Assembly: GCF_051903065.1 (NCBI RefSeq) | Contig: NZ_CP178438.1 | DNA length: 64,000 nucleotides | Direction: 5' to 3' (one strand) | Source: Escherichia coli | GTDB lineage: Bacteria > Pseudomonadota > Gammaproteobacteria > Enterobacterales > Enterobacteriaceae | In this document: positions 8,001 to 14,000 of the stretch, piece after piece | Numbering within the stretch: the stretch's first letter is position 1 | Layout of the letters: the number at the start of each line of letters is the position of its first letter | Made by a program: the position numbers

Positions 8001-11000
8001 TGCACTAACGGCACCCGCACCAGTATAATCCCCACTGTTATCACTCGGGCTAATACCAGCGGCAGCATCGTTAGAGTTATCAAGCGGGGTACCGATTGCC
8101 AGGTTGCCATTACCATGAGCATCTTCATTACCATCGAAACGAATTGCGGCGGACTTAAAGGTTTCCGGGCATTGAGTCAGATCGATAGAAAAAGCCGTCG
8201 GGGCAGCCACATCATCGACGCCACTAAAGGCTGTACGGTTTACTTTGCCTAAGTCAACGACCTGATCTTTAGTTTCAGGTGTGACTTCGCAAGTACTGTC
8301 AATAATTTCACCACGGAAATGGACTGTTCCATCAGCCGCCTGTAGGTGACCTGCCATAAACACAGAAGTTAACGCTAATGCTCCTACAATCATATTTGGT
8401 TTCATAAATATAACTCCATTAATTTGATATTATTCCTGTGTATTATCCATTTATTAAATTTGGATAAACCCGATCGGTATTTGATCAGAAGCCAAATAGT
8501 ACTACCAATATACTTTGGCGCAAGTGGTTTTTATTTTATACATTTAGATAAATTAAATTGGGTGTTAAGCAAAACTAAATTTATATCGTTATGTGATTGC
8601 TTAAAAGAAGAGGGAATAATAAATGGATATAAATATTATTTTTATGATGAGGTGATTTTTTAATTATATCACACATCTCAAAGCAGACAATTTTTTCATA
8701 TTTACATAATCCACAACTATGAATTTGCGTAGAAAACAGTCTTATTTTTAGTAAACCACACATTCAAATTATATTTTTTGCCTATATTTGTGGAAAGACT
8801 ATATATTTACAGTGATAATTTATTATCACACATTGTTACATAGTTAAATAAAATTACATATTGATGATTGTTTTACAAGCGATTCTTGAATGAACAAAAC
8901 GTGCTATTCATTACAAAGTACGTCAATTATGGCAATTGTTTGTCAATGATTCGAGATATTTAATTACTACTACGGTTAAAACAAGTGTTCAACGGTGCCC
9001 CAAATAATAGCTGAAGTTAATTATATGGAATGAGGTTAGATTATTAATGCTGGTAAGTAAAAGGGCCGCCAAAAGGCAGCCCTTCTGTGGGATGACAAAA
9101 TAGTCCTAAAATAAACTACGCTACAAGCCATATTTTTTGGCTCTACTTTAAAAATAAATGACAAAATAGATCTAAAATAAATTTTAAGCTTGCCATAATC
9201 TCGCACCCAATAAGTGACAAAATAGATCTAAAATGATATCAGGACATGGTTAAACATCTGTTTTAAATCAACTTTTATTTGTTTAACTATTTAACCGACC
9301 CACAACCGAAGTTTCTCATAAACAAAATCGATAGGTAAACGCTCTTGCTCTAAACGAGTTGACCTATCCCCGGAATTAGTACCAATCCCGTGATGAGATT
9401 TTCCAGCTTATGCTGCCTGCTTTGCATACTCAACAGGCGACATGTAATTCAACGAACTGTGCGGACGAACATGATTGTAATGCTCGCGCCATAAATCTAT
9501 TTCGTATCTGGCCTCGTCCATCGTTCTAAACCAGTGTTGGTTCAGGCATTCGTTTCTGAACTTGCCATTCAAACTTTCAACAAATGCGTTTTGTGTTGGT
9601 TTACCTGGCTGAATAAAACCCAGAGTAACGCCGCTTTCTTTGCTCCAGAAGAACATCGCCTTACTTGTAAATTCAGTGCCATTGTCACAGATCACCTTAT
9701 TTGGTTTGCCGCGTTGCTCAATCAGCAAACTCAAGAATCTGGCGACTTGCCTGCCACTGATGGAAACCAAAACCAATTGGCCTACCATTTCACGCGAATA
9801 ATCATCCACCACATTTAAAACCCTAAAGCGCCTGCCATTGCTGAGTTGATCCGATACAAAGTCCATAGACCAACGTTGATTCACAGCTGTTGGCACTTCC
9901 ATAGGCTGTCGTGGCCGAGTCAGCTTTTTGCGTTTTTTCGTACGCACCTGCAAACCTTCTTCGGTATAAAGGCGATAGGTATGCTTACGGTTTTTAACCC
10001 AACCTTCGCCCCGAAGCAGACTATGCAACATCAGATAGCCATAACGCGGATATTGGGTTGCCAATGCTTTCAACCGCTGTCGTATGCTGTTATCTGCATT
10101 CGTTTTGGGCTGATACCGCAATGCCGTTCGGCTTAATCCCGCCAACTTGCAAGCCACCCGTTCACTCAGGCGAAAAGCTTCTATCAAATGCTGAGCAACA
10201 GGTTTCCTTGCCGCTGGCGTCACCACTTTTTTGACAGTACATCCTTCATTGCTTCGACTTCCAGCATCTTGTCGGCCAGCATTTTCTTAAGCTTGTTGTT
10301 CTCTGCCTCAAGCTCCTTCAATCGCTTGGCTTCGTTCACTTCTAGGCCTGCGTACTTACTGCGCCAGTTGTAGAAGGTCCCGACGGATATCGCCATCTCA
10401 CGGCATAAGTCCTCGACCTTCGAGCCTGCTTCATGCTGCTTGATGGCTTTGATGATTTGTTCTTCGGTGTAACGTTTTTTCATTTTGAGATCTCCATTGG
10501 TTCCATTTTATTGGAAATCTCATCAATGTCATGGTCTTAAATTGGGGGGATAGGTCACTCACCTGAGCATGAGTTACAGGGAGCAGAGTTTCATTTGTGG
10601 CTTAAAAACACTCCCACCTGCATAACGGCACCCGAATTTACCACCACGACCACTGGTTGATCACCACCCGTTGTGTTTTCACGGAACCACCATGTTCAGC
10701 AATCATCCAGTTACTTGATTGCCTGCTATGAGCGAAAAGCAGAGATTCAGCACCTCAACACAATCCGCATGCGAATGACCGCTTTTACCGCAAAACCGGA
10801 CATGAAGCCCGGTTTATTTAAAACGAAATTATCGGTCTATAGGGCTAATTGTCCCTGATGAATGTTGACCGATGACATGTGTATATATTTGAGTTGTCTT
10901 CAAATCCGTATGCCCTAACAGCTCTTGAACTGTACGAATGTCTGTTCCCGCTTTTAAAAGCTGCGTTGCGAAAGAGTGCCTGAATGTGTGTGCGGTAACG

Positions 11001-14000
11001 TGTTTCTGAACACCTGACCGTATAACAGCGCTCCTTAATTTCTTTGTTAGGGACGTCCAATGCAAGTGATGGCGGCAAACATATCCATCCACTGGATGCT
11101 TACACCTGACAGATGATGGGAATATAAATTGCCACTTAAAATCAGAAATTGCGTAAGGGTATTTTCGCGCGAGCCCTGGCGGGAGACTTGTTTTACCCTC
11201 ACCTTCGCAAAGATCCTTTTCATGAAGATCACGAACCTTTTCAATATGCAATTTAAGGGGTTCAACAAGCTTTTCAGGTAACATCGTGACTCGATCTTTA
11301 CCGCCTTTGCCACGAAATACATAGACATTCCTTGACTCAAAATCGATATCTTTAACTCTTAGCATTAATAGTTCTGCTTTCCTTAGACCACAACCATATA
11401 AAAGCGAAAACATCAGTTTATAGCTACCGGATAGCTGATTGATGATACTCATTGCTTCGTTATGAGATAAGACGGATGGAACCCGTTTAGGTGCGCGTGC
11501 TTTTATCGTATCAGGTAGTAAAGTAAGTTCTCTCTGAAGTATATGTTTATACATGAAGACGATAGCGCAAAGCGCCAAGTTTTGAGTAGACGCCGTAACT
11601 TGTCGGTTTACGGCTAAATATGTCAAAAAATTAGTTACCTCTTGTTCCCCCATGTTCTTAGGATGCTGTTTTTTGTTAAACAAAATGAAGCGTTTTATCC
11701 AAAGTAAATAGGTTTTTTCAGTCTGAATTGAGTAATGCTTGGTTCGCATAACCTGTCTGATGCTTTCAAGGAAAGGTGAACGAGTCATGTAAGCTCCTTT
11801 GTTGATTATCGAGTGTGTTACTGAGACTTCTCAGTAACACCTGATGATAAGGAGGCTAAATCAAGATAAGGCATTGATATTAATAATATTACCCCATTAT
11901 GGGGTGGAGACATTACTGAGAAGTCAGTAATGTCGTAAATTAAAAGTAAATTAAGTCCTTAACTAGCTTCTTAAGTTATTGATCTTCAGTAAACTCATAG
12001 GTATAAATTTGTTTTGCCTTTCGGATGTTACTGAGAGGTCTACATAATAACTGTTAACCTCTGAGGAAGAATTGTGAAACTATCACTAATGGTAGCTATA
12101 TCGAAGAATGGAGTTATCGGGAATGGCCCTGATATTCCATGGAGTGCCAAAGGTGAACAGCTCCTGTTTAAAGCTATTACCTATAACCAATGGCTGTTGG
12201 TTGGACGCAAGACTTTTGAATCAATGGGAGCATTACCCAACCGAAAGTATGCGGTCGTAACACGTTCAAGTTTTACATCTGACAATGAGAACGTATTGAT
12301 CTTTCCATCAATTAAAGATGCTTTAACCAACCTAAAGAAAATAACGGATCATGTCATTGTTTCAGGTGGTGGGGAGATATACAAAAGCCTGATCGATCAA
12401 GTAGATACACTACATATATCTACAATAGACATCGAGCCGGAAGGTGATGTTTACTTTCCTGAAATCCCCAGCAATTTTAGGCCAGTTTTTACCCAAGACT
12501 TCGCCTCTAACATAAATTATAGTTACCAAATCTGGCAAAAGGGTTAACAAGTGGCAGCAACGGATTCGCAAACCTGTCACGCCTTTTGTACCAAAAGCCG
12601 CGCCAGGTTTGCGATCCGCTGTGCCAGGCGTTAAATTGCACAAGGAAGTCATGCGTATAATCCTGCCCATTCTATTAATTATTTCAAGTTTGCCAGCTTC
12701 AGCAATTGTTGTTCGTCACGATGTTACTGACAAAAAATATAATGCTGACGCTACGGATTTTGCACCTTTGGCAACACTTTATGTTGATGGGGCTCATGGC
12801 TCATTAATTAAGCCAGATTGGATTGTAACTGCCGCTCACGCAACTTTCTGCATAAGTCCTGGCAGTTACCTCCGCTTAAATAATGGCTATCACAAAGTTG
12901 AAAGCGTTTTCGTTCATAAAGACTATCAACCCAGTAAAAGTCACGACATCGCTTTAATAAAATTAGTAAATCCAATAAATGATGTAAAACCGGCTAATCT
13001 TTACGAACAAACGAATGAGCTCGCAAAAATAACTTGGTTTATCGGTGTCGGCGGTACTGGAAATGGGCTGACCGGACAAATTGTCGATAACTATGAAAAT
13101 GGTGGGGTTTTACGAAAAGCTCAGAATCAAATCGAACAAGCAGAAGGGCCGCTATTAAAATTTAAATTTGATAGAGATGATGTAGCTTTGCCATTAGAGG
13201 GGGTTTCAGGTAGTGGTGATAGTGGCGGCCCGGCATATTCCACCATTGACGGGACGCATTACTTACTTGGTATTAGCTCAAGAGTTGAAGGTGGGGATAT
13301 CGGGGAATACGGTGTCATGGAAGTGTATTCTAGAGTCTCATTTTTTACGTCTTGGATTGAAAAAATCACTGCAGGTGAAGAAGCTTTGCAGCAGCAATTG
13401 GCATTTCCCAAATTGCAGCGCCTTCCTGCAGGACTCACCGAACAGATTTTACCCCAAGTCTGTGCTGTTATTAGCTTGAAACCAAATGCAGTTTAACAAG
13501 TTTCTTAATTTTGTTCTGGCAATAAACCAGAGCTTATTTTCAGTGAGGTCTTCACTGAATTGGCGCTACCATTTTAAATAGAACATAGGAACTTCTAAAT
13601 GAAATGCATATTTTTGATTTTACTGGTTATAGCCTTTTCAGCTAACGCAATAATCATCAGGCATGATACGTCAGACGAAGATTATCAAAAGTTAGCAAAA
13701 AGCGATAATTCTACTGTTACTTTCTATGGTGTCTATAAAGGCGAAGATATTGTTGCGGGAACCGGAAGTATCATCGCCGACAAATGGATTGTTACTGCTG
13801 CGCACGTTGCTAATTACTTAACTAAAGGTGGCAAAGTTCAATTTAAGGATGCTTTTTATACAATTGAAAAAATTGTAAAGCATCCACTTTGGAAAGATCA
13901 GCAACTACCTAATGATATAGCTCTTGTTAAATTATCTTCTGCTATTGAAAACGCGACAATTGCTAAGTTGAATGACTTACCAAACGAAGCTGGCAAAATT

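Follow-up and report, generated by a model that had tools for sequence, protein, structure and literature searches.

Tn7 carries a class 2 integron that is frozen by a nonsense codon in its integrase gene. In the window analysed here, a 64,000-nucleotide stretch of Escherichia coli DNA, an integron beside the left end of a Tn7-like transposon has an integrase gene with no such interruption, which raises the question of which integrase it encodes and whether that integrase can still move cassettes. A first-pass annotation had read the gene as IntI2-like. We find instead that the ORF is very probably the integrase of a class 4 mobile integron, which a Tn7-like transposon carries at attTn7. The features of the locus, with strand and basis, are as follows.

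9081..9085, no strand: target-site duplication CCTTC, left copy (same pentamer abuts both ends)
9086..9234, plus: left end of the Tn7-like transposon (inverted repeats matching the right end)
9360..10557, minus: IS3-family insertion sequence, orfA/orfB with frameshift, between left end and intI (NCBIfam transpos_IS3)
10829..11788, minus: intI, 319 aa, intact, very probably of a class 4 (IntI9/IntISXT) integron (ORF, profiles, alignment)
11789..12053, plus: attI/promoter region (motif search, five-context alignment)
12054..12630, plus: dfrA1 cassette, 577 bp (99.5-99.7% identical to the Tn7 and class 1 integron cassette)
12631..14492, plus: two S1/trypsin-like secreted protease genes (Pfam Trypsin)
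14493..20294, plus: fourth cassette, small HhH-like ORF split by Tn2 (attC, cassette boundaries)
14515..19464, minus: Tn2/Tn3-type transposon with blaTEM, tnpR and tnpA (38-bp inverted repeats)
20295..20356, plus: 62-bp stub past the last attC (alignment)
20859..28562, minus: tnsE, tnsD, tnsC, tnsB and tnsA (Pfam TnsA/TnsB/TniB/TniQ-TnsD/TnsE_C)
28590..28695, minus: right end, four TnsB-type repeats, terminal …CATCCCACA (repeat search, Tn7-end comparison)
28696..28700, no strand: target-site duplication CCTTC, right copy (abuts the right end)

The integrase gene and its class

The uninterrupted frame described in the first-pass annotation is borne out by the ORF listing: a single ORF of 319 codons on the minus strand (10829-11788) begins with ATG and contains zero internal stops, and direct reading of the sequence places an AAGGAG Shine-Dalgarno 6 nt 5′ of the start codon. 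The product scores 420.8 bits against the NCBIfam profile TIGR02249 ('integron integrase'; curated cutoff 265 bits) over residues 6-319, contains the Pfam domains Phage_int_SAM_4 and Phage_integrase, and aligns over its full length with the VchIntIA structure 2a3v (E = 3e-81). Both catalytic motifs quoted earlier, one of them HTFRHSFAT, are present in the protein, and alignment with IntI1, IntI2, IntI3 and VchIntIA confirms a complete R-K-H-R-H-Y set, invariant at R136, K161, H267, R270, H293 and Y302. Integron integrases recognise extrahelical attC bases through an extra segment (W219, P232, H240 and H241 in VchIntIA numbering); this insert is kept in the 319-aa protein, with the four residues invariant across IntI1, IntI2, IntI3 and VchIntIA. 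Judged by its sequence, 10829-11788 is not a chance ORF.

Divergence from IntI2 had also been suspected correctly, with amino acid identities of 53.6-54% to IntI2, 45% to IntI3 and 41-42% to IntI1. The label 'IntI2-like', on the other hand, does not stand, as comparison with the traF-adjacent integrase of SXT/R391 ICEs gives 100% amino acid identity; that integrase was found in four copies (L003, L005, L008 and L010) within the neighbourhood traF-traH-traG…setDC-setR together with dfrA1. Over intI and attI, the DNA is 98.9-99.2% identical to these ICE copies. Copies from V. cholerae encode proteins with 98.3-99.2% identity to that of the window, and the published primer inti9-Sh95R (PMC6541609) matches exactly at position 11582. 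In SXT ICEs, dfrA1 lies within the class IV integron of HS3 (PMC2791158), and class 4 denotes intISXT, formerly intI9 (PMC3108266). Our high confidence in the class 4 assignment draws its IntI9 identity from the ICE-borne and V. cholerae copies and not from the original IntI9 sequence AAK95987.

Integron classes are defined by intI sequence, and IntI9/IntISXT, from the mobile class 4 integron that SXT/R391 ICEs carry, was reportedly introduced by Hochhut et al. in 2001. Location in such an ICE was part of that first description; the integron studied here sits at glmS within a Tn7-like transposon. An open intI frame is the normal state for class 4, and the integrase itself is not new, although little has been described of its carrier. 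The identical protein is RefSeq entry WP_063100060.1, recorded on 261 contigs. UniProt names it 'IntIPac', a generic automated-annotation (RAST) label, which in the literature searched appears in only a few genome-survey papers, none of them on the element studied here.

Two known systems are close enough for direct comparison. The class 4 integron of SXT/R391 ICEs shares the identical integrase, an attI of 97-99% identity, dfrA1 in first place and the 62-bp stub at the distal end, whereas its carrier is an ICE at prfC rather than a Tn7-like transposon at attTn7, its downstream cassettes differ from the two S1 proteases and HhH ORF seen here, and its attI lacks the 2-bp deletion that marks one palindrome in the window lineage. 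VchIntIA (IntI4, 2A3V), from the V. cholerae chromosomal integron, resembles the window integrase in fold family, length and catalytic and attC-binding residues, but the two are only 44% identical, and VchIntIA serves a sedentary, LexA-controlled array of hundreds of cassettes.

Chromosomal IntI proteins of Alteromonadales (Alishewanella, Paraglaciecola, Glaciecola, Colwellia, Thalassotalea) are of equal length and 73-91% identical, and the chromosomal integrons of this order are probably the source lineage of the window intI. At 80 species-representative IntI loci among the matches listed (best 82%; Alishewanella, at 91%, was not one of these loci), no Tns genes lay within 10 kb, so the relatives at those loci do not sit on Tn7-like elements. 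The genome-contig scan gave no IntI relative more than 82% identical among the matches listed, and it says little about host range.

The attI site, the cassette array and integrase activity

The attI region carries the decamer RTTACTGAGA in two palindromes (11817-11838 and 11912-11933) and as a single copy (12027-12036), and all four exact copies in the 64-kb window fall within 11789..12053. The core GTTA lies at 12053. In an alignment of five contexts, mean column identity is 98% over 270 bp and divergence starts exactly past GTTA; the end of attI, …ATAATAACTGTTA, is identical in all five, and five different first cassettes are then joined to it at G|TT. A candidate cassette promoter can be proposed from the sequence at TTGATC (11979)-17 nt-TATAAA (12007). 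No LexA box (CTGT-N8-ACAG, one mismatch allowed) was found in 11789-12073, in agreement with PMC3108266. The locus is laid out as an integron: a divergently oriented attI, with GTT at its core, precedes cassettes that terminate in attC hairpins, one attC being degenerate.

The first cassette, dfrA1, ends in an attC (12543-12636) whose bottom strand folds (z = -7.3). The protease genes (12651-13496 and 13599-14390) are paralogues with 37% identity and probably form one fused cassette, because the attC between them is degenerate while that at 14400-14498 is complete. Positions 14400-14494 are 88% identical to one attC of SXT ICE arrays. PADLOC matches of the proteases were discounted as trypsin-domain similarity only. 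The HhH-like ORF, which has a 120-aa RefSeq copy (WP_306804508.1) and a faint Pfam HHH_5 match, is followed by an attC at 20187-20300 (fold z = -7.5). The Tn2 that splits it is flanked by the target duplication TTTTA (14510-14514 and 19465-19469), and this insertion is missing from 5/7 E. coli copies. Past the last attC, the 62-bp stub is identical in all contexts, namely Tn7-like transposon, SXT ICE and a third island (L007), which suggests that it is the ancestral right flank of attI and a fixed distal end of the integron. The first-pass annotation had proposed that a functional integrase would account for the non-canonical cassettes; a class 4 integron of marine gammaproteobacterial pedigree explains them better than a reactivated IntI2.

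By analogy with its family, IntI would, as a tyrosine recombinase, bind attI in double-stranded form and attC as a hairpin folded from the bottom strand, and would exchange one strand at G|TT, which places the predicted attI crossover at G12053|T12054. Cassettes would be inserted at attI, excised through attC x attC recombination and transcribed from a promoter within attI. The variety of cassettes that adjoin one and the same attI sequence in other contexts makes an active integrase plausible. In Providencia rettgeri L006, the same transposon and the same attI are followed by wholly different cassettes, and in the ICE copy L010 an additional cassette is placed exactly between attI and dfrA1. 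We infer activity from these natural arrays, and the enzyme is presumably active and expressed in its E. coli host too. Another integrase acting in trans could in principle have made the cassette differences between contexts. Our search of the literature found no recombination assay of this integrase.

One possible hypothesis, which we consider unlikely but deserving of weight, is that the integron is effectively frozen in its E. coli host, with an integrase that Enterobacterales express poorly or that is inactive there, and with an older array of marine gammaproteobacterial origin that simply travels along with the Tn7-like transposon. The integron is present in seven complete E. coli genomes, and the dfrA1-protease-protease-HhH array is 100% identical in all seven; there is therefore no sign of ongoing shuffling in E. 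coli. The same element occurs in P. mirabilis H110, which shares the transposon only (99.96% identity over 9086-14519), and a comparison of the seven E. coli arrays with H110 yielded no indication that cassettes were recently shuffled in Enterobacterales. The degenerate attC, the lineage-specific deletion in the attI palindrome and an attI region with no LexA box or recognisable inducible control fit such an integron as well. The origin of the nearest relatives of both IntI and Tns proteins among the matches listed, in Alishewanella, Rheinheimera, Arsukibacterium and Alteromonadaceae, also speaks for it. However, intI itself shows no inactivating change: its copies differ by 1-4 nucleotides each, and every difference is a synonymous change of a third codon position. 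The P. rettgeri transposon copy, with entirely other cassettes on the same attI, and the single cassette insertions that distinguish ICE copies in clinical hosts also argue against loss of function.

The Tn7-like carrier and its relation to Tn7

The transposon that carries the class 4 integron spans 9086-28695 of the window, on the E. coli chromosome, and has TGT…ACA termini with 3 + 4 TnsB-type repeats. Its left end consists of a terminal TGTGGGATGACAAAATAG and three GACAAAATAG(A/T)(T/C)CTAAAAT repeats, and the repeats at the two ends are putative TnsB-binding sites. The right CCTTC starts 20 bp past the stop codon of glmS (28720-28722), at attTn7. All five Tns domains were found. The IS3-family element near the left end has terminal inverted repeats and corresponds to the RefSeq entry 'IS3 family transposase, programmed frameshift'. 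The integron adjoins the left end of the transposon, the position that the class 2 integron holds in Tn7. Identification of the carrier as Tn6230 was rejected, as Tn6230 encodes only TnsABCD, its ends are different and its cargo is sil-cop.

The likeness to Tn7 is considerable: both are TnsABCDE transposons downstream of glmS with an integron beside the left end, and the first cassette in both is dfrA1 (99.7% identical). On this layout, with intI at the left end, dfrA1 first and tnsEDCBA at the far end, the gene could be taken for a functional IntI2 variant in a Tn7 class 2 integron whose codon-179 stop was repaired or never arose. The first-pass annotation was right that Tn7 intI2 has a stop at codon 179, which we confirmed in the canonical Tn7 of E. 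coli FDAARGOS_536, and intI2 does occur in intact form, as on Salmonella plasmid CP148857.1. We nevertheless regard an IntI2 variant as highly improbable, refuted by the identity values. The protein agrees in full with the SXT-ICE integrase and is only about half identical to IntI2, the intI DNA aligns with that of Tn7 over only 74 bp, and attI2 shares only ~10 bases near the core with the window attI, the two sites being otherwise unrelated. The carrier differs too, with TnsA-E only 46-73% identical to the Tn7 proteins, termini that depart from those of Tn7 beyond TGTGGG, and a different TnsB-site sequence.

Still less credible is a sedentary integron resident in the host chromosome, which the chromosomal location and several cassettes of non-resistance or unassigned function might suggest. 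The flanking transposon ends refute it, given that they and a target duplication at attTn7 enclose the integron, that the pstS-side lpf2 flank matches 1834 E. coli genomes against the seven complete genomes with the integron, and that the same module is found in ICEs and another island. The flanks and GC content (51%) of the window are those of E. coli, with 100% identity to strains 23CRST027/031. A P. mirabilis host, which a 2.1-kb match of 100% had suggested, is rejected on these grounds and because H110 has only the transposon in common with the window.

Origin and significance of the class 4 integron on a Tn7-like transposon

The class 4 reading leaves room for a tentative hypothesis on origin, namely that the Tn7-like family, and not the SXT ICE, could be a primary vehicle of class 4, so that class 2 with Tn7 and class 4 with Tn7-like elements would be parallel partnerships. 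The idea, to which we give rather low credence, is suggested by the 62-bp stub common to ICE, Tn7-like transposon and third island, by similarity in the third island that extends ~110 bp past the stub into the tnsE-distal Tn7-like backbone, and by the marine and aquatic genera (Alishewanella, Rheinheimera, Arsukibacterium) in which the nearest relatives of both IntI and Tns occur. The idea that an integron is ancestral to the Tn7-like backbone finds no support in that form: in other places this tns module, 99.6-100% identical from 20349 onwards, travels with RND-efflux or chromate genes, and among the matches listed no Tns genes lie near the closest chromosomal relatives of IntI.

We found no paper in the searchable literature that pairs a Tn7-like transposon with a class 4 integron or describes a Tn7-type element with a class 4 integrase. 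Carriers include clinical and animal E. coli, P. mirabilis and Providencia, with trimethoprim resistance. Such elements are easily mis-scored as class 2/Tn7 when surveys use dfrA1, glmS location or a generic 'Tn7-like' annotation, and an intI2 PCR would miss the class 4 intI. Because the same module is present in SXT ICEs, the class 4 platform can move by at least two routes, one conjugative through ICEs and one through Tn7-type transposition. If the primary-vehicle hypothesis is correct, dfrA1 is already being spread across E. coli, Klebsiella, Salmonella, Proteus, Providencia and Vibrio by a Tn7-type element that has a working integrase and targets glmS, a universal site. With an integrase that is apparently functional, a Tn7-type transposon joins the site-specific, nearly host-independent landing pad of attTn7 at glmS to live cassette capture.

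The integrase and its class

The ORF at 10829-11788 is a real gene. An AAGGAG ribosome-binding site lies 6 nt 5′ of its ATG. The protein scores 420.8 bits against the NCBIfam model TIGR02249 ('integron integrase'; cutoff 265), has a SAM-like N-terminal domain and a catalytic domain (Pfam), and aligns end to end with the VchIntIA structure 2a3v (E = 3e-81). The first-pass annotation had read this locus as an IntI2-like integrase, diverged from IntI2 but with an uninterrupted frame and intact catalytic boxes. The frame and the boxes hold up: the ORF is single, the HTFRHSFAT box and the second box quoted there are present, and the six catalytic residues (R136, K161, H267, R270, H293, Y302) are invariant across five reference integrases. 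Equally invariant are W219, P232, H240 and H241 of the integron-specific insert, which in 2a3v grip the attC bases that are flipped out.

Integrase gene and attachment site
10829-11788, minus strand: intI, class 4 integron integrase; single unbroken ORF, 319 codons, ATG start
11789-12053: attI; crossover G12053|T12054

The divergence from IntI2 is also borne out, at roughly 54% identity, and the 'IntI2-like' label does not survive it. Identities are 53.9% to IntI2, 45% to IntI3 and 42% to IntI1 by tblastn of 72,556 plasmid records, and 54%, 45% and 41% in a MAFFT alignment (44% to VchIntIA), and the integrase is therefore outside classes 1-3. Databases already contain the identical protein (RefSeq WP_063100060.1, 'integron integrase'; UniProt A0A1L5JQM6, 'IntIPac'), 261 contigs carry its exact sequence, and V. 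cholerae O1 integron integrases at 98.3-99.2% identity fall into its 90% cluster. A look-up of the encoding loci places the exact protein in three kinds of genomic context.

Genomic places of the exact integrase
(a) L003, L005, L008, L010: adjoining traF-traH-traG…setDC-setR, with dfrA1 as cassette; hotspot 3 of SXT/R391 ICEs
(b) L002, L004, L006, L009, L011: adjoining tnsABCDE, between glmS and pstS
(c) L007: island between prs and pth that encodes large tyrosine recombinases

Class 4 is that of intISXT, formerly intI9 (Cambray et al., PMC3108266). Because the exact protein occurs in SXT/R391 ICEs, the published primer inti9-Sh95R (PMC6541609) matches exactly at 11582, and the intI and attI DNA is 98.9-99.2% identical to ICE copies, we assign the ORF to class 4 (IntI9/IntISXT), with identity to the type accession AAK95987 inferred from the ICE-borne copies. 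The class 4 integrase itself is thus already known, and an open frame is its normal state. The intI2 of a canonical Tn7 inserted at glmS in E. coli FDAARGOS_536 differs in this respect: it is annotated 'internal stop', and translation places the stop at codon 179, in agreement with the first-pass annotation. A genuinely open intI2, which is what the window had been taken to contain, is found in L012 (Salmonella Infantis plasmid CP148857.1) at 3001-3978, with 325 codons, beside a dfrA14 cassette.

attI junctions and the cassette array

The 265-bp attI region is ~98% conserved across five contexts up to a common end, …ATAATAACTGTTA, and directly past GTTA the five sequences split into different first cassettes.

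First cassettes after attI
1: dfrA1
2: second dfr allele, possibly dfrA15-like as in ICESh95 (candidate label)
3: 120-aa ORF
4: GFA-domain ORF
5: M1-peptidase-like ORF

Likewise, the ICE locus L010 differs from L008 by one added cassette, placed exactly between attI and dfrA1. On sequence comparison, this pattern is what attI x attC recombination at G|TT leaves behind. Such natural junctions are the strongest indication of a functional integrase, beside the conserved residues and the fact that ten independent copies differ from the intI of the window by 1-4 nt, all of them third-position, synonymous changes; they are no proof of activity for the window copy in E. coli. Across Enterobacterales the array does not vary, which leaves a current role of the integrase in shaping it here unproven; the same invariance lends something to the possibility, which we consider rather unlikely, that the integron is intact in sequence but in effect static in this host.

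The motif RTTACTGAGA has exactly four copies in the 64-kb window, all inside attI: a palindromic pair at 11817-11838, a single copy at 11912 and another at 12027, beside the core. Their likeness to the GTTA-containing IntI1 sites in attI1 makes them putative integrase-binding sites. In the window lineage a 2-bp deletion breaks the second palindrome (11912-11933). The palindromes (11817-12036) overlap the sole promoter-like site upstream of intI, with its -35 hexamer at 11834, and no LexA box was found in the attI region.

Cassettes and insertion
12054-12630: dfrA1 cassette, 577 bp; 99.7% identical to the Tn7 cassette; attC fold z = -7.3
12631-14492: two secreted S1 protease genes, paralogues, 37% identical
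14493-20294: cassette with small HhH-like ORF; attC fold z = -7.5
14515-19464: complete Tn2 (blaTEM-1) inside the fourth (last) cassette; duplication TTTTA

The attC between the protease genes (13485-13600) retains a 5′ half that resembles the attC at 14400, but its 3′ half is gone and it shows no folding (z = -1.7). The two genes therefore probably move now as one unit, resembling a fused cassette. The unusual cassettes had been attributed to a functional integrase; they reflect a class 4 integron with relatives, among the matches listed, in marine Alteromonadales and related genera, rather than a reactivation of IntI2. An identical integron is present in 7 of 5,426 complete E. coli genomes, two of these copies carrying the Tn2 insertion. 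In the copy inspected from strain 23CRST027 (L106), Tn2 is further broken by an IS26-bounded sul3-qacL-aadA1-estX region, absent from the window.

The Tn7-like carrier and its host

Carrier
9086-28695: Tn7-like transposon; termini TGTGGGATGACAAAATAG…/…CATCCCACA
9360-10557: IS3-family element that separates intI from the left end in every E. coli copy

The carrier has three GACAAAATAGATCTAAAAT-type repeats at its left end and four at its right, and a 5-bp duplication, CCTTC, starting 20 bp beyond the glmS stop codon. The first-pass annotation implied a Tn7 whose integron integrase works, but the transposon is different too: compared with Tn7, identities are 56, 63, 73, 48 and 46% for TnsA, B, C, D and E, which makes it a distinct Tn7-like transposon. 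Integrase and transposon are thus entities separate from IntI2/Tn7, both already sequenced. Tn6230 was rejected as the carrier on comparison with the window element. Exact copies of the Tns proteins are also encoded in Klebsiella, Salmonella, Providencia, Proteus, Vibrio paracholerae and Arsukibacterium, and Rheinheimera has a relative at ≥90% identity. At glmS in other genomes the same tns module (20349-28695, 99.6-100% identical DNA) bears other cargo, so the integron is cargo rather than a constant component of the element.

Other cargo of the tns module
L017, L019, L020, L023, L025: RND efflux pump with outer-membrane factor, MFS transporter, two-component regulator
L024: chromate-resistance, SOD and CorA genes

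The host is identified as E. coli by the flank with the lpf2 fimbrial operon and by the Tn2 junction, both 100% identical to strains 23CRST027/031. Proteus mirabilis was rejected, as strain H110 has only the transposon in common with the window. The lpf2/stg-type chaperone-usher operon that helped place the host (2244-8405, between pstS and attTn7) has two tandem StgD/LpfD-like adhesin genes.

A possible primary vehicle for class 4 integrons

RefSeq annotates the pieces of the Tn7-like/class 4 pairing in generic terms only, and a literature search short of most subscription journals found no paper on a class 4 integron aboard a Tn7-like transposon. The prs-pth island of L007 (CP135084.1, 11177-18567), the third context of the identical integrase, encodes a RecD2-like helicase, two large tyrosine recombinases (Integrase_2, Phage_integrase) and one cassette with a PycTM domain. 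A 62-bp stretch past the last attC (20295-20356) is the same in all contexts, whether Tn7-like, SXT ICE (L003, L008, L010) or this island, as would be expected if it were the ancestral right flank of attI. In L007, ~80% similarity runs on beyond this stub to ~20467, ~110 bp into the Tn7-like backbone. Together, these hint at a common history of integron and transposon, and lend support to a tentative reading in which the Tn7-like family may serve class 4 integrons as a primary vehicle, parallel to class 2 and Tn7.
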